Below, piece after piece: positions 206 to 5,000 of a DNA stretch of 5,000 nucleotides (the first letter of the stretch is position 1; each line of letters begins with the position of its first letter). The notes under the pieces were generated by a model. It made no database searches. It saw nothing but the letters and a program-made list of their open reading frames with translations, and was not told the DNA's origin. The stretch is from a virus. Its lineage: Duplodnaviria > Heunggongvirae > Uroviricota > Caudoviricetes. The position numbers and the translations under genes are program-made. The DNA lies in the IMG/VR virus record IMGVR_UViG_2571042870_000016, one strand, 5' to 3'.

Positions 206-1057
206 GTGATTGCTTTACTACTGATTCCCATTCTTGTTAGCGGCTACATTTTAGTAGTCGCTAATTTATATCATTACTATCAATTGCATCGATACGATGG
301 CCAACTTTTGTATATAAAAGTTGCAGCTCATGGAACAATGAGTGTTGTTTTTGTGATTTTAGCAGCAGTAGTAGTGAAATATTTCTTTCCTAATTTTCAC
401 CCAATAGGAATGCTTTCAGATATTCTTAATGTCAAGAAAATAATAAATGGTAATAAAGCTGAAACATGGCTTGCTTTGATTTCATTATCATCAATTATAT
501 TTTCTTTAATTTGGGTGGCTTTAGTTTGGTTAAAAAATATGTTTTTTGGTTTCTTTTGTGAAAAGAAACATCATGAAAACATCTTTCATGCTAAGAAACT
601 TAGAGTATTAAGAAAAACAATTTCTAACTCAACTTTGGATAGTATGCTTTTAGATGCATTAGAAAGCAGTCCTAAAGAACCGATTCTAATAACCTTATCT
701 TCACGGAAAGTTTATGTTGGTATAGTTAATGGAATTCAAGAACCAACAGAAAGCGAAGCGCCAAATAGTTATATATCAATTTTCCCTATTATGTCAGGCT
801 ATAGAGATAAAGATACTCTTTCCATCACCTTTACGAATTCATATCCATCAGAAGTACTAGTGAGTTCAGCTATTACAATGGACTCCCAAAAAAGGCATAA
901 AGTGAAAAATATGGATATAATATTTCGTGCTGATGAAATTTCTCATCTTTCATGGTTCGATTTTGAACTATTTGAACAAGTCAATGATTCGATGAAGCAC
1001 GATACCATTGACTTGCGAAGTGAGACTTACTCAGGGGAAACTAGCGAAAATTTTTAG
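206..1057 (+). CDS. Hypothetical membrane protein (283 aa): three predicted N-terminal TM helices plus a roughly 170-aa soluble C-terminal domain; AT-rich cargo gene
   Basis: Seen in sequence: GTG start at 206 with AAGGAAAAGG upstream, TAG at 1055-1057. Hydrophobic stretches at about residues 2-22, 44-66 and 88-110, followed by a Lys/Arg/His-rich segment (KNMFFGFFCEKKHHENIFHAKKLRVLRK), which fits positive-inside topology. Hand counts of sample lines give roughly 22-37% GC here against about 48% in the prophage genes. No catalytic motif recognised. Alternative start at internal ATG (Met44) would delete the first TM helix. Confidence 0.6.
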   Translation: MIALLLIPILVSGYILVVANLYHYYQLHRYDGQLLYIKVAAHGTMSVVFVILAAVVVKYFFPNFHPIGMLSDILNVKKIINGNKAETWLALISLSSIIFSLIWVALVWLKNMFFGFFCEKKHHENIFHAKKLRVLRKTISNSTLDSMLLDALESSPKEPILITLSSRKVYVGIVNGIQEPTESEAPNSYISIFPIMSGYRDKDTLSITFTNSYPSEVLVSSAITMDSQKRHKVKNMDIIFRADEISHLSWFDFELFEQVNDSMKHDTIDLRSETYSGETSENF

Positions 1058-2243
1058 TAATTTCAGGTTTCGCTAAAATTTCAGCATGAGGTACACACAC
1101 CCAATCGATATGATTTTTAGTATAAATTTTTGTAGATTTGGCGTCGCTGTGTGCCATGCGGCCTTGCGGATCTATTCCCTGCTGATCGAAAAGGTGTGCC
1201 GCCAGCGCACGGATTTCGTGGAAGGTTGGTCTTTCTTCCATGGGTACATTGTCAAATAGTCTCAACCGATCACGAATTGCGGAAAACGATCTACTTAAAT
1301 AATCTGGGGCAACTTGTGTCGGATGTGAAACCTCTTTGCTTCGTTTAACTTGGCGTTCTGGGATCCTGTGAACGACAAACGGACTTGCCACATTATCTCT
1401 GCTATCGTCAATTATCCGTTTCAACTCTTCACCAATCGGTATTGCAACGTGTGATGCCTCTTTTTTTTGTACTTTCTGCCTATGGATATATAGTGTCCCA
1501 TAAATACCGTTTTTTGGCTGTTCTAACCATACGCACCCGCAGATGCCGTCTTTAGGTTCGCGAATTGAGTAACGGATTCGCGATACTTCGAGTCGTGCAT
1601 GTGTAGTTTGCAATGCTAGATCCATTGCTGTTCTTAACCATGGTGCAGCGGCCTGCCTGATAGCTATAAAATGCTCGAGTGACAGGCGCCGTCTTTTCTT
1701 CTCATCAGTCCTACGCATTTTTTTTCTGATGGCCGGGTTATCCAGCATTAGTGATTCATCGACCGCATAAGAGAACAACTTTTTAAGAAAGCTGACCTTT
1801 CTGTTCTGCACATTTGCGGATGCGCTGGCATGATATTTGTTGATGTAGGTATTAACGTGTTCAAGTTCGATATCGCATGCCGGAACATTTACGAAAAACG
1901 CTTTTACGCGTAGAGCGTCATTTTTCCAGTCATCTAAGGTACTCTGGGAAGGACGTTCGTCTTCGATAATCCGGGTCATTATGTGATCAACATGTTCAGC
2001 AAATGGTTTTGCTTCTCCGATAACACCGCCAGATTCTCTAATAAGATTTTCTACTGATGGAGATAATTCTGGTCTCATCCTCAGGTTGTACTCTCTGGCG
2101 ATTGCAATAGCTATTGCCCTATCCTTACCTATATTTTTCTTCTTTCCGGTAATAAGTGTGAATTTATAAACACCTCGATCTTTATCAAAAATCAGATAAT
2201 CAGGAAGATGTCTGTATTCTTTTTTACGTGGCCTTGCCGCCAT
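1041..2243 (-). CDS. int: Site-specific tyrosine recombinase, lambda Int family (prophage integrase)
   Basis: Seen in sequence: the N-terminus (RPRKKEYRHLPDYLIFDKDRGVYKF...GKDRAIAIAIA) parallels the lambda Int arm-binding domain (RRRSHERRDLPPNLYIRNNGYYCYRDP...GRDRRIAITEA). The catalytic region carries the conserved residues: Arg in TTHARLEV, PTFHEIRALAAHLF (H-x-x-R), RMAHSDAKSTKIYTKNH (His and the nucleophile Tyr). The track ORF runs 1041-2249 from a GTG; I place the start at ATG 2243 because GAGGGG sits 7-8 nt upstream of it, 3 nt after the xis stop. TAG stop at 1043-1041. The gene appears intact. Confidence 0.93.
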   Translation of the reverse strand: MAARPRKKEYRHLPDYLIFDKDRGVYKFTLITGKKKNIGKDRAIAIAIAREYNLRMRPELSPSVENLIRESGGVIGEAKPFAEHVDHIMTRIIEDERPSQSTLDDWKNDALRVKAFFVNVPACDIELEHVNTYINKYHASASANVQNRKVSFLKKLFSYAVDESLMLDNPAIRKKMRRTDEKKRRRLSLEHFIAIRQAAAPWLRTAMDLALQTTHARLEVSRIRYSIREPKDGICGCVWLEQPKNGIYGTLYIHRQKVQKKEASHVAIPIGEELKRIIDDSRDNVASPFVVHRIPERQVKRSKEVSHPTQVAPDYLSRSFSAIRDRLRLFDNVPMEERPTFHEIRALAAHLFDQQGIDPQGRMAHSDAKSTKIYTKNHIDWVCVPHAEILAKPEITKNFR

Positions 2244-2245
2244 GG

Positions 2246-2455
2246 TCACCCCTCGTTTATTAACTTGCGAACAGCTTGACTAACCATTGAGTCGACTCCC
2301 CATTTTTCTGTTTCGCAGACAAAAACAGAACCGTCCACGATGCGTCCCATGAGTAGACCGTTCTCGACCCAACGTTTTATCGTTCGGTTGTCAGGAATTG
2401 AGCCATTAGAGAATTCACGGCGTCCCCATTGGCTCGCTTTCATTAGTTTTGCCAT
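2246..2455 (-). CDS. xis: Excisionase / recombination directionality factor, lambda Xis-like (69 aa)
   Basis: Seen in sequence: lies immediately upstream of int, and its TGA (2248-2246) overlaps the int GTG and sits 3 nt before the int ATG. The motif SQWGRREFSNGSIPDNRTIKRWVENGLLMGRIVDGSVFVCETE parallels lambda Xis QEWNARQRRPRSLETVRRWVRECRIFP...KDGREYLFHESA (W..R...S..T..RWV...DG..F.E). The track ORF starts at a TTG at 2500; I prefer ATG 2455 (MAKLMKAS...) because GGAG lies 8 nt upstream. Confidence 0.8.
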   Translation of the reverse strand: MAKLMKASQWGRREFSNGSIPDNRTIKRWVENGLLMGRIVDGSVFVCETEKWGVDSMVSQAVRKLINEG

Positions 2456-2516: not shown

Positions 2517-2675
2517 TTAATTTTGTTCTCTGGTTGCTACCTGTTTTATTGGCCTGATGCTGTCCAGGATAAGACGGCGACGCATGTTTGGCGCACCCCA
2601 ACGGTAACCAGTCTTTTTGTCGTAGGATTCACAACGTCCGGCAACCCAGGACGTTTCAGTGGAATGTAATTTCAT
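2517..2675 (-). CDS. Possible small protein (52 aa, MKLHSTETSWVAGRCESYDKKTGYRWGAPNMRRRLILDSIRPIKQVATREQN); not in the supplied ORF track
   Basis: Seen in sequence: hand translation of the minus strand gives ATG at 2675-2673 and TAA at 2519-2517. It fills an otherwise gene-free 230-bp gap between the 120-aa gene and xis inside a tightly packed operon. The Shine-Dalgarno is weak (GGTG about 10 nt upstream) and no family is recognised. Confidence 0.3.
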   Translation of the reverse strand: MKLHSTETSWVAGRCESYDKKTGYRWGAPNMRRRLILDSIRPIKQVATREQN

Positions 2676-2730
2676 CCGCTTTTCACCGTCTCGGGTGAGA
2701 TAACAATTCCTGTATGAGTTTTTATCACGC

Positions 2731-3093
2731 TCATTTCTTAGTCTCCGGTGCTTTCGGCATTACTGCCCAGTGAGTGATATTGACGTTTTCAAGGTCCCCG
2801 ACCTGAAATGTCCACTGCCATTCTCCGGTTTCTTTTTGCCCCCATGTGTACCAGAGAGAACGCCAGCCAATCAGCCAGCCTTCTCCACTAGCATCAAATA
2901 ACAGAACACTTTCATTTGCTGGTGGCAGTTCAGCTGACACTGGTATTATTTTGTTTTCCAGTGCCGCACATTTAGCTTCAAGCGCGTTGAATTTACGTAC
3001 CAGGTACTCAGCATTTGTTTCGTTCACTTTCAGATCTCGCGGTACACATCTCCCACGAAGAAACCCTTCCATTTCGAAAACATTCATGCGCAT
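2731..3093 (-). CDS. Prophage early protein, YfdS-like (120 aa) with a Trp-rich C-terminal half
   Basis: Seen in sequence: ATG at 3093 with GGAG 8 nt upstream; TGA at 2733-2731. The start overlaps the upstream HD-protein gene by 10 nt, and an in-frame ATG at 3087 forms ATGA with that gene's stop. C-terminal region GWLIGWRSLWYTWGQKETGEWQWTF is Trp-rich. The YfdS assignment rests on synteny (P-Q-R-S order) and matching length to K-12 CPS-53 from memory, not on sequence recognition. Confidence 0.7.
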   Translation of the reverse strand: MRMNVFEMEGFLRGRCVPRDLKVNETNAEYLVRKFNALEAKCAALENKIIPVSAELPPANESVLLFDASGEGWLIGWRSLWYTWGQKETGEWQWTFQVGDLENVNITHWAVMPKAPETKK

Positions 3094-3620
3094 TTGCGTA
3101 ACTCCGATAACTCGTTAAAGCGTTCCATAAACATCCCGTAGGCATGGCCCGGTGCCAGTGGAATCACGTTGAACATCTCTGTTGCCGGGATACCTTCCAG
3201 TACAGGCCAGAAAGAGCCATCATCAAGCCCGAGATCGCGGCGTTCGGTTGCCAGCATGATGAGATCGGCATATTTCACGGGCGTACTCATAACTGGGGGT
3301 AACCCGTATTTCTCACGGATTACGGCGTCTATTTTTTCTTCCATTTGTTTATAGTCAGGAAGAAGGCGTTTCAGTGGTGCGGGAATGTCCTGGCAATACG
3401 CTTCTGTTGCATCATGCATTAACGCTTCAAAAGCAAATTCCTGCGGCACCAGCTGGCTGCAAAGAACCGCATGTTGGGCGACGCTGTAGAAGTGCGAAAG
3501 ATGACCGGCAAAGCGACAGATATTTGAAAGGGAAACCGCGATATCGTTAATATCGATGTCGTCTTTATTTATCCTGTCATAATAAAAATGCTTCCCGGAA
3601 AAAGTTTTAATAAATGACAT
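3084..3620 (-). CDS. yfdR: HD-domain metal-dependent phosphohydrolase, YfdR-like 5'-deoxynucleotidase (178 aa)
   Basis: Seen in sequence: HD-domain metal-binding motifs are present (GHLSHFYSVAQHAV, ALMHDATEAY, and a downstream Asp in TERRDLGL). The track ORF starts at a GTG at 3647 (187 aa); I place the start at ATG 3620 (MSFIKTF...) because GGAG lies 6 nt upstream, which gives 178 aa and matches the K-12 YfdR length as I remember it. TGA at 3086-3084. Confidence 0.85.
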   Translation of the reverse strand: MSFIKTFSGKHFYYDRINKDDIDINDIAVSLSNICRFAGHLSHFYSVAQHAVLCSQLVPQEFAFEALMHDATEAYCQDIPAPLKRLLPDYKQMEEKIDAVIREKYGLPPVMSTPVKYADLIMLATERRDLGLDDGSFWPVLEGIPATEMFNVIPLAPGHAYGMFMERFNELSELRKCA

Positions 3621-3713
3621 TTTGTTCTCCACGTATATGCGCTGCACCGCGCTGAATTCTGGTAAAAAGAATCCCTCACCATCCTGCGATTATTGAGTAA
3701 ATTACGTTTCCAT

Positions 3714-3735
3714 AAATGCCCCCGCAGGGGCATTT
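3714..3735 (-). terminator. Perfect 9-bp GC-rich hairpin (AAATGCCCC / CGCA loop / GGGGCATTT), 12 nt downstream of the yfdQ-like stop; candidate weak intrinsic terminator or RNA-processing structure
   Basis: Seen in sequence: 3714-3722 pairs perfectly with 3727-3735 around a 4-nt loop. On the minus-strand transcript the stem ends in UUU followed by AUGGAAACG, so there is no full U-tract. It sits in the 127-bp yfdQ-yfdR intergenic spacer. Confidence 0.3.
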
Positions 3736-3747
3736 GCAGTAATGAAA

Positions 3748-4572
3748 TCAGGCGGTGAAAGTACCAATAAAGGTTTCTACTTTGCTGTCCTTGAATTTCT
3801 CAACAAGCAGATCACGAAATTCGTTAGCCATTTCTTCCTGCACCGCCTCCAGCTGAATAATGCGCAGAACCAGTACAGGACGATCGCCAGTGATAATACT
3901 GAGGCGTAATTTAAACGGACGTTCTTTCAGACCTTCAAACGGAACGCATTTAAATTCAAATGCCACTGGCATAATGTCTTTGGTCTTCGCTTCGACAGAC
4001 TCCATCAGGGAGCGTTTGCCGCTGAAGTCATTATCTTCAAAATCAGCGGTCTGGTTTGCTTCAATCGTGATTTTACGGACAGCCGCAGCCGCTTTTGTTG
4101 CCTGAATGGCGTCACCATTAGCATCAAAGCCCACAAGGTAGTCGGCCCAGTCTTCAATCCATTCTGCCAGTGACTTCTGGGAGTTACGCTCGCCGTTAAC
4201 AGACAACAGAGCAGAGAACGGTGCTGTCTTTTTCAGTTTGAGAGTGGCGGTGTTATCTGCGTGACCTGGTTCATCAATAGTACCCAGGTTAAGCACACTG
4301 ACGGCACGCATATTATCGGCATCGATAAAGCAGCGGGTGCCTTCATCTGCAAGAACTTTAGAATAACGGGTAAAGTCATCGATGCTGGCAGTGGAAAGCG
4401 CACCACGGAAACGGAAGCGATTTAAATTAAATTTTTCCAGATCATGAATGCGGAAATTCTCAGGCAATGCCACAGCATCGGCACCAATCTTACTGATAAT
4501 TTCATTAACACCCTGAGCAGAAATAAGGGCATGGATTTGATTAATTGCGGTTGCGTCTAAGTTCTGAGACAT
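3748..4572 (-). CDS. yfdQ: YfdQ-like prophage protein (DUF2303 family, 274 aa)
   Basis: Seen in sequence: ATG at 4572 with GAGGA 6 nt upstream; TGA at 3750-3748. The protein ([28 protein letters not shown]...) and its length match my memory of E. coli K-12 CPS-53 YfdQ, and it sits in the expected position between the YfdP-like and YfdR-like genes. Function unknown. Confidence 0.85.
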
Positions 4573-4637
4573 AATAAGTCCTCACTATATAAAGATATTC
4601 AGTGATGAGATAAATAATCAGTTTATTACGAACGATA

Positions 4638-5000
4638 TTAACGACCTGCTGCGCGGAGTTTTCCGTCAGGTTCACCGGCAAGAGTCAGTAATTGTCCCTG
4701 GTCTTCCTGCAGAATAGTCAGGCGACCACCGCGATCGACATACATTGGCGTTTCGGTGGTGTCTTCTTCGGAAATTTTCCCGCGGTTAGTCGGGCGAACA
4801 TATGAGAGTTTGTGTTTGATTTTCACACGGTTCTCATCAAACGGTTCGATTTCCAGATTGAGTGAGACCTTCCCTTTGGTTTTCGTGTTCATCACACCGG
4901 AAGCGACTTCACTGAGAACTGCGCCGATTTTGGTTTCAAATACGCCGCCGTCCAGCTCCCCGATAAATGCCTGCACATCAGTACTGCGTTCGCTAGCCAT
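4638..5000 (-). CDS. YfdP-like prophage protein (120 aa)
   Basis: Seen in sequence: ATG exactly at the window edge (5000-4998), TAA at 4640-4638, 65 bp upstream of the yfdQ-like gene on the same strand. The YfdP assignment rests on synteny and length from memory. The RBS and any upstream extension lie outside the window. Confidence 0.7.
   Translation of the reverse strand: MASERSTDVQAFIGELDGGVFETKIGAVLSEVASGVMNTKTKGKVSLNLEIEPFDENRVKIKHKLSYVRPTNRGKISEEDTTETPMYVDRGGRLTILQEDQGQLLTLAGEPDGKLRAAGR

Follow-up and report, generated by a model that had tools for sequence, protein, structure and literature searches.

By analyzing a 5,000-nucleotide stretch of the Caudoviricetes virus record IMGVR_UViG_2571042870_000016 (hereafter the window), we found a block of four intact genes, yfdP, yfdQ, yfdR and yfdS, lying on the minus strand and adjoining an excisionase-integrase (xis-int) pair, and we propose that this block is a mosaic of two sub-modules and not one four-gene machine. 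The conserved unit is yfdP-yfdQ, with yfdR as a frequent companion and yfdS as a mosaic add-on. The reading that we favour, tentatively and with slightly less than even confidence, is a composite one, in which yfdR-yfdS together with yfdQ blocks initiation at the chromosomal origin oriC and yfdP-yfdQ serves as an accessory pair in DNA transactions, all within an ordinary early-left operon. The block would then be what SfV/ST64B/LLS-type lambdoid phages ordinarily carry as their early-left ("pL-type") accessory region, here kept in a decayed prophage, and it most likely does not stand in for missing recombination genes. The initial annotation of the window had pointed out that such genes occupy this slot in lambda and Rac; its gene labels and the position beside xis-int, as in these two phages, were borne out by family searches and by the open reading frames (ORFs).

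First, we assign the four genes, on the basis of their sequences, as alleles of yfdPQRS of Escherichia coli K-12 and not as genes merely "like" them. The encoded proteins are 95.0 to 98.9% identical to their counterparts in the K-12 prophage CPS-53 (Table 1), and the block aligns with K-12 at 96.8% DNA identity across 2270 bp with zero indels. Against K-12, the ratio of nonsynonymous to synonymous substitutions (dN/dS) was between 0.06 and 0.31 across the four genes, with the lowest value for yfdR, which indicates that all four are under purifying selection. Gene set and order are those of CPS-53 (KplE1), that is yfdP-yfdQ-yfdR-yfdS(-yfdT), corresponding to orf32-orf29 of SfV. However, yfdT follows yfdS in K-12 whereas a different, frameshifted small ORF is found there in the window, and the K-12 block abuts torI at argW whereas that of the window abuts a different xis-int pair at tRNA-Pro. 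The block is also 97-98% DNA-identical in SfV (orf29-32), SfIV, mEp460, 1720a-02 and many Stx2c phages, and of 5426 complete E. coli genomes, 2446 contain at least 80% of it, a single genome holding as many as 7 copies. Since it is textbook K-12 prophage content in almost half of the complete E. coli genomes, the finding as initially stated is not new: the gene set, its position and the question that it raises are already published, and the function is partly known. The present analysis adds the invariant pairing of yfdP with yfdQ, its synteny with exonuclease (exo) and SSB genes across distant phages, the contrast in Chi content and the pointer to an unpublished structure. These elements sharpen the question of YfdP-YfdQ biochemistry and leave the classification unchanged.

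Second, we determined the linkage among the four genes in 80 genome loci (one genome per species, with YfdQ 41-99% identical) and in 122 viral contigs found with a degenerate DNA pattern for the AEWxEDW motif. A yfdP gene was directly upstream of yfdQ in 79 of the 80 genome loci and in 106 of 118 viral loci, nearly all misses being cut by a contig end, and the divergence of YfdP correlated with that of YfdQ (Spearman 0.87, 178 loci). The pair is also present in Xylella/Xanthomonas phages, in the Vibrio podophage 64E30.1 and in phage VvAW1. The next gene after yfdQ was yfdR in 125 of 178 loci (~70%), and yfdR was present in 59 of the 80 genome loci. A yfdS-like gene was found in only 6 of the 80 species-level loci and is rarely linked to yfdPQ outside E. 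coli and Shigella, while E. coli genomes include variants with yfdP and yfdQ only and variants with yfdR and yfdS only. The four-gene unit proposed initially thus describes the near-identical E. coli and Shigella copies, but across species only yfdP-yfdQ is invariant: when the genes were checked for independent occurrence, yfdS did not behave as a member of a unit and yfdR did so in part, whereas the yfdP-yfdQ linkage held strongly.

The pair is widely distributed. The DUF2303 family, to which YfdQ belongs, comprises ~1800 clusters at 50% identity, and of the 150 best-scoring representatives listed, almost every one has a length of 250-300 aa, none being long enough for a fusion. By tblastn, DUF2303 was found in 184 isolated phages, including those of Escherichia, Salmonella, Shigella, Vibrio (32), Xanthomonas (15) and Pseudomonas. 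Carriers of yfdPQ include both temperate phages and phages that appear virulent, from Enterobacterales, Vibrio, Xanthomonas/Xylella, Burkholderia and marine gammaproteobacteria. Identifying what YfdP-YfdQ does would therefore close a gap that recurs in the early operons of phages, Shiga toxin (Stx)-converting ones among them. In one of these, the O104:H4 Stx2a phage P13374, the yfdP homologue is split by a frameshift into two overlapping ORFs (L210 6558-6934) and yfdQ is intact. This split may reflect a pseudogene, an artefact of sequencing or a programmed frameshift, and other Stx2a phages with the identical YfdQ allele (52.7% identity) may carry it as well.

Third, we compared the block with recombination (Rec) modules. 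Homologues of lambda Exo/Bet/Gam, P22 Erf/Abc/Arf and Rac RecET were absent within ±6 kb of yfdQ in 78 of the 80 genome loci, in agreement with the initial reading of the slot; this lineage has no Rec module there, and most yfdPQ carriers are without one. In 67 of the 80 loci, the same strand carried a cI-type S24 repressor gene ~2 kb upstream; an integrase gene was located ~3.5 kb downstream. The operon and the position between immunity region and xis-int are therefore those of lambda Red (gam-bet-exo), Rac RecET and P22 erf/abc, but no sequence, profile or fold similarity connects these systems with yfdPQRS. One could thus read the block as a non-canonical recombination system replacing Red or RecET, with YfdQ as a cryptic annealing protein, given that in SfV-type phages the interval from cI to int is without recognisable Rec genes and is filled by the block. 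The predicted YfdQ model also ends in a beta-beta-beta-alpha unit, a motif that occurs in Rad52-type annealing proteins as well. However, where Rec genes occur, yfdPQ sits beside the Rec module and not in its place, and full modules coexist with the pair in P13374, in the E. coli-type viral contigs L106, L116 and L190, in Xylella phage Usme, and also in loci L076 and L080. The order is bet, exo, SSB, YfdP, YfdQ in the three contigs, and kil, gam, recT, exo, SSB, YfdP (frameshift-split), YfdQ and ea22 onward to xis-int in P13374. The block is promoter-distal to the Rec genes in phages holding both; in Usme, YfdP and YfdQ are followed by recombinase, exonuclease and SSB further along the same early operon. 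A substitute should be mutually exclusive with the module that it replaces, and because yfdPQ is not, this role is unlikely.

Chi content pointed in the same direction. The prophage remnant to which the window belongs has 6 Chi sites in 16 kb, all on the same strand (L001 14798, 17918, 20527, 22803, 23111 and 30422, in the coordinates of the host locus L001), one of them (GCTGGTGG) being inside yfdS at window positions 2918-2925 (+). In SfV as in mEp460, we counted 12 sites over ~18 kb, and none in the lambda int-pL region, in the whole of P22 or in P13374's early-left region; Chi density is 3.8-6.6 per 10 kb in carriers without Rec genes, against 0 in lambda and P22. By its Rec genes and Chi counts, the window's lineage belongs to the "no Rec module, high Chi" class of lambdoid phages, sharing with LLS-type phages the absence of early-left Rec genes and the high Chi density, although, the window prophage being a remnant, this placement does not extend to its growth requirements. 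However, yfdPQ is not diagnostic of the LLS-type class, being also found in Chi-free phages with Rec modules, such as P13374. The positional remark of the initial annotation had been made before, for LLS, ST64B and phiNP, by Zheng, Casjens, Davidson, Amundsen & Smith (2025) (PMC12315714). In their study, lambdoid phages without Rec genes were rich in Chi, and LLS, a carrier of homologues of yfdP/yfdQ and of the HD phosphatase, grew better when RecBCD was present and had active Chi sites (PMC12315714). Our Chi counts reproduce their division into phages with "no Rec module, high Chi" and phages with "Rec module, no Chi", yfdPQ being found in either group. They also reported that the yfdP/yfdQ/HD-phosphatase cluster is neither restricted to nor universal among Rec-less phages, ArgO145 having both, and judged it unlikely to encode unrecognised recombination proteins (PMC12315714). 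Together, these data suggest that Rec genes are absent from this lineage because of Chi enrichment and the use of host RecBCD/RecA, and not because yfdPQRS took over. A hidden recombination function, as initially suggested, is therefore unlikely, the coexistence of yfdPQ with Rec modules and the richness in Chi of the Rec-less carriers both speaking against it. A block replacing Red or RecET is already largely refuted, and we regard it as very improbable, the least probable of all the readings that we weighed.

The composite reading takes its first half from work on the K-12 alleles. Noguchi & Katayama (2016) obtained the K-12 cluster when it suppressed over-initiation in multicopy (PMC4776307). 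In their hands the minimal set inhibiting oriC initiation in vivo, in multicopy, was yfdQ and yfdR along with yfdS or yfdT, yfdP being dispensable for this phenotype, and extracts oversupplied with YfdQRST inhibited initiation in vitro (PMC4776307). Moreover, purified K-12 YfdR was shown to bind DnaA domain I, which required Phe46 and was in competition with DiaA and DnaB (PMC4776307). The initial statement that only the HD enzyme has a known activity is thus outdated by the oriC inhibition by YfdQ, YfdR and YfdS (or YfdT) and by the binding of YfdR to DnaA. The window has the gene content of this initiation-inhibitor cluster, its yfdQ, yfdR and yfdS being intact and 95-99% identical to the K-12 alleles tested. 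YfdR of the window would accordingly be expected to bind DnaA domain I at Phe46, the contact site of DiaA and DnaB, and, acting with YfdQ and with YfdS or YfdT as a DUF551-type partner, it would block new initiation at oriC upon expression; the experimentally supported steps are those of the K-12 alleles. As for the partner, YfdS scored 21.5 bits against DUF551 (PF04448) over residues 50-117, for a cut-off of 22.0. The phrog_1226 ORF that occupies the yfdT position has a translation that is not similar to YfdT. Since this ORF is both frameshifted and unrelated to yfdT, the "yfdS or yfdT" redundancy of K-12 does not exist in the window copy.

During lytic growth, initiation of the host chromosome would be stopped, a role in phage growth that we infer, and DnaB and precursors would presumably become available to the phage replicon, much as with lambda P. 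Noguchi & Katayama likened the system to lambda P (PMC4776307): in each case a phage protein made early binds DnaA and inhibits initiation at oriC. However, lambda P binds DnaA domain III and is itself a DnaB loader, whereas YfdR binds domain I and has an HD fold, the two proteins having no homology; and unlike lambda P, YfdR needs YfdQ plus YfdS or YfdT in vivo. The DnaA link is a concrete and testable example of a phage targeting DnaA domain I.

Several points weigh against the composite reading. First, the DnaA phenotype was seen under multicopy expression, and those who described it cautioned that it might be an overexpression artefact; deletion of yfdQRST gave no initiation phenotype (PMC4776307). 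Second, no tight binding of YfdQ, YfdS or YfdT to YfdR or DnaA was seen in pull-downs (PMC4776307), a result that does not account for the requirement for YfdQ. Third, yfdR was found in only 2 of the 24 loci where YfdQ is <50% identical; its absence from the other 22, which have the most divergent yfdQ, indicates that the DnaA role cannot be what the whole family does. Fourth, yfdP, the tightest partner of yfdQ, is unneeded for the DnaA phenotype, which suggests that the native job of the pair is a different one. Finally, gene neighbourhood in mosaic early operons is weak evidence of joint function.

The HD motif of YfdR raises another explanation, namely that manipulation of the nucleotide pool by a YfdR deoxynucleoside monophosphate (dNMP) phosphatase is the point of the block and that the other genes are passengers. 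The residues of the HD motif are intact in the sequence, YfdR strongly matches phage "deoxyribonucleoside 5' monophosphate phosphatase" families, and yfdR has the lowest dN/dS of the four genes; YfdR also shares the HD fold and motif with the E. coli 5'-deoxynucleotidase YfbR. However, YfdR scored below the cut-offs of both Pfam models, YfbR-like (25.0 bits, cut-off 25.9) and HD_3 (17.3, cut-off 22.5), and far below that of the YfbR NCBIfam equivalog (20.4 bits, cut-off 122). Its match in the PDB was 2gz4 (Atu1052; E 3e-14), YfbR being marginal (E 0.88). We thus place YfdR, from these comparisons, as an HD-fold protein of the separate phage family phrog_318, outside the YfbR-type 5'-deoxynucleotidases. 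Work cited in PMC4776307 gives YfdR a weak 5'-nucleotidase activity and nucleotide affinities far lower than those of YfbR. Degradation of dNMPs is also hard to square with phage DNA synthesis, and the genetic need for yfdQ and yfdS or yfdT is left over. Manipulation of the nucleotide pool as the purpose of the block is therefore improbable.

The second half of the composite reading concerns YfdP and YfdQ. YfdQ is a full-length member of DUF2303 (PF10065; 307.7 bits, E 8e-92, cut-off 26.6, residues 7-272) and matches phrog_210 (E 2e-119). The family membership of YfdP comes from its phrog_204 match (Table 1) and from the site of its gene directly upstream of the DUF2303 gene; close YfdP homologues carry the precomputed assignment PF27127, a new Pfam family. 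AlphaFold2 models were moderately confident (predicted local distance difference test, pLDDT, of 77 for YfdQ and 74 for YfdP). They suggest for YfdQ an N-terminal helix, a mixed alpha/beta middle, disordered loops at 45-55 and 172-198 and the C-terminal unit mentioned above, and for YfdP a long helix packed onto a five-stranded meander. Both proteins are acidic (YfdQ has an isoelectric point of 5.0), small to medium in size and without an enzyme signature. As anticipated by the initial annotation, they have no assigned biochemistry: neither gave a significant fold match, in a library extending to April 2026 that did not contain PDB entry 9o7m, nor profile relatives. Mining of weak Pfam matches (E <= 10) for 48 YfdQ and 30 YfdP homologues returned no recurrent second family, and hhalign comparisons with RecT/Bet, with Erf and, for YfdP, with lambda Gam gave nothing. 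More generally, neither YfdQ nor YfdP showed similarity in sequence, profile or fold to single-strand annealing proteins (SSAPs), Gam, Ku or SSB.

Two sources hint that YfdQ works as a large assembly. First, the PDB entry 9o7m ("YfdQ Protein"), for which we found no publication, has 36 copies of a 274-aa chain that is ~40% identical to YfdQ of the window and 98.8% identical to a protein of Xanthomonas phage MET23-P3 (L213 27837-28661). The listing of its YfdQ chains begins with "C", an indication that A and B are molecules of another kind, possibly nucleic acid; the YfdP-like protein, the 470-aa neighbour and the capsid protein of MET23-P3 were not co-deposited. Second, gp10 of Burkholderia phage JC1, a DUF2303 protein encoded beside RecT and YqaJ, was recovered from virions purified on caesium chloride, and the JC1 authors speculated that it associates with DNA ends. 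YfdQ thus appears to build a large homo-oligomer.

In the composite reading, yfdP and yfdQ would co-evolve in strict linkage and keep company with phage genes for DNA transactions, usually with an exonuclease upstream and an SSB or HD protein downstream. The order is phrog_7838 protein, YqaJ exonuclease, YfdP, YfdQ, SSB in Kistimonas (L076); phrog_7838 protein, Mu-Gam-like Gp157, YfdP, YfdQ, SSB in Hahella (L084); exo, YfdP, YfdQ, SSB in Vibrio phage 64E30.1; and YfdP, YfdQ, (YfdR), SSB in Proteus-type loci. Phage VvAW1 offers a further neighbourhood of this kind. In the Pontibacterium locus L080, RecT and a YqaJ exonuclease fused to a gp5.9-type RecBCD-inhibitor domain precede YfdP and YfdQ. 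From the strict pairing, the oligomeric state and these recurrent exonuclease and SSB neighbours, we infer that YfdP-YfdQ would act on intermediates of phage or host DNA replication or recombination, or on the proteins bound to them, and would not itself be a recombinase. As a separate observation, the fusion gene of L080 (4029-5615), from a metagenome-assembled genome of Pontibacterium and located between the RecT gene and yfdP-yfdQ, encodes 528 aa with an N-terminal YqaJ exonuclease and a C-terminal T7 gp5.9-like domain (Pfam E 2e-13), and such a joining of exonuclease and anti-RecBCD activities is unusual.

The same evidence could be taken further. YfdP-YfdQ may be an accessory factor of recombination-dependent phage DNA replication, the DnaA effect being a side activity of YfdR only. 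The large oligomer would then act on DNA ends, single-stranded DNA, branched intermediates or their proteins alongside exonuclease and SSB, and Rec-less, Chi-rich phages would keep the pair to cooperate with host RecBCD/RecA. The recurrence of exo-yfdP-yfdQ-SSB synteny, or of a Rec module followed by yfdPQ, across unrelated phage groups speaks for this explanation, as do the invariant pairing and co-divergence, the 36 chains of 9o7m with a possible nucleic acid, and the co-purification of JC1 gp10 with virions. The K-12 yfdQ deletion is also weakly sensitive to methyl methanesulfonate and hydrogen peroxide, according to a study cited in PMC4776307. On the other hand, YfdQ is acidic, neither it nor YfdP resembles any SSAP, Gam, Ku or SSB, a role in recombination was thought improbable by Zheng et al. 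(PMC12315714), and synteny in mosaic operons may be historical and not functional. We consider this explanation less probable than the composite reading, yet the most plausible of its rivals. Rather unlikely, and slightly more so, is the broader proposal that YfdP-YfdQ is an unrecognised and widespread component of phage recombination or replication modules, a large YfdQ oligomer with YfdP as its partner, that couples the replication of Rec-less, Chi-rich lambdoid phages to host RecBCD/RecA. Knowing the function of the pair could in any case clarify how such phages replicate.

Early-left operons are also rich in genes such as ral, gam and abc, so that a role in anti-defence or superinfection exclusion has to be considered, for instance by inhibition of RecBCD, of another host nuclease or of a defence system. 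The size and acidity of YfdP and YfdQ and their lack of an enzyme signature would fit such a role, and overproduction of YfdQ raised plaque production of the resident phage SW1 in K-12. However, PADLOC gave zero matches among the nine proteins of the window, its library covering defence systems and not anti-defence proteins. Inhibition of RecBCD in particular finds no counterpart in the data: no homology to the known inhibitors (Gam, Abc2, gp5.9) was seen, YfdP giving nothing against lambda Gam with hhalign, the carriers are Chi-rich, and LLS carries the genes yet is helped by RecBCD and has active Chi. In addition, the L080 exonuclease already has its own RecBCD-inhibitor domain and P13374 already has Gam. 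A role in anti-defence or exclusion is thus hardly probable, to about the same degree as the nucleotide-pool explanation.

Transcription on the minus strand would run through yfdP, yfdQ, yfdR, yfdS, the small ORF, the xis-like gene and int (Table 1). The genes had been described as coupled, which holds for yfdR and yfdS, whose overlap is 10 nt, but not for yfdP-yfdQ and yfdQ-yfdR, separated by spacers of 65 nt and 127 nt, the latter with a stable hairpin (fold energy of -17.3 kcal/mol, z of -3.0 against shuffled sequences). Because it lacks a T-run, this hairpin was not called by a simple terminator scan, and the promoter and terminator scan inside the block gave nothing beyond the shuffled expectation. 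The hairpin may be a partial terminator, a processing site or an RNA-stability element separating yfdPQ from yfdRS, and its position agrees with how the block splits in other genomes. A "yfdPQ operon" is listed in PMC9181523. An alternative start for yfdR is the GTG at 3647.

Table 1. Features of the yfd block and of the genes downstream of it (window coordinates)
Feature	Position	Strand	Description
yfdP	4638-5000	-	120 aa; phrog_204 E 2e-49; 97.5% identity to K-12 YfdP
yfdQ	3748-4572	-	274 aa; DUF2303 PF10065; 98.9% identity to K-12 YfdQ
Hairpin	3714-3735	-	perfect 9-bp stem AAAUGCCCC/GGGGCAUUU, 13 nt past the yfdQ stop codon
yfdR	3084-3620	-	178 aa (RefSeq start); HD phosphohydrolase, phrog_318 E 1e-111; 97.8% identity to K-12 YfdR
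yfdS	2731-3093	-	120 aa, 7 Trp; DUF551-like C-terminal half; phrog_583 E 1e-80; 95.0% identity to K-12 YfdS
Small downstream ORF	2517-2734	-	frameshifted pseudogene per RefSeq; phrog_1226; start overlaps yfdS stop by 4 nt
Excisionase-like gene	2246-2455	-	weak phrog_629 match
Tyrosine integrase gene	1041-2243	-	lambda-type arm-binding domain PF09003, phrog_1; RefSeq annotation

The xis-like protein of the window turned up again beside integrases in related loci. A Rac-like origin of the int/xis pair was rejected, the integrase being unrelated to Rac IntR and the xis-like protein to Rac XisR.

The prophage to which the window belongs, a decayed remnant of ~16 kb, occupies a tRNA-Pro site flanked by narP and yejM in E. 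coli strains including NC19 (100% match). It spans L001 14791-30799, of which the window is L001 15001-20000. Two tRNA-Pro genes flank the remnant according to RefSeq, ARAGORN recognising only that at 30800-30876. Repressor, cro, promoter, replication genes and most of the Q region are deleted, and beyond yfdP there are only PerC, Dam and Q fragments (L001 20409-21176). The remnant also has intact lysis genes, fragments of tail genes and an IS2 insertion. With the immunity and replication region deleted, the "pL operon" of the initial annotation is deduced from intact relatives such as SfV. The term fits intact SfV and mEp460, where the block lies between the cI repressor gene and xis-int and no recombination genes are annotated in between, but for the remnant, which has lost the promoter, it is indirect.

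Some features lie just outside the block. In K-12, the spacer upstream of yfdP has four 11-bp SrsR (YgfI) boxes and is the strongest SrsR binding site of the genome (PMC9181523). This yfdO/yfdP spacer (L004 9248-9604) is outside the window, which stops exactly at the start codon of yfdP, and the region upstream of yfdP in NC19 differs from it, a frameshifted hypothetical gene being found instead.

At the other end of the window, two plus-strand ORFs (1-201 and 206-1057) are located between the tRNA-Pro attachment site and int, with a GC content of ~30-38% against 45-49% in the remaining window. The second one encodes a 283-aa protein with approximately three N-terminal hydrophobic segments and a soluble C-terminal part, which belongs to phrog_3630 (function unknown) and had no PADLOC or Pfam match; its 3' end overlaps that of int by 17 bp. 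The feature looks like a typical attachment site-proximal "moron", possibly one for exclusion or abortive infection. The sole Rfam match of the window, to "Bacillus-plasmid RNA" at 968-1015 (-), was below threshold (26.9 bits for a gathering score of 31, E 0.009). It falls outside the block, at the convergent junction of this cargo gene with int, and is probably due to chance or to a terminator-like hairpin.

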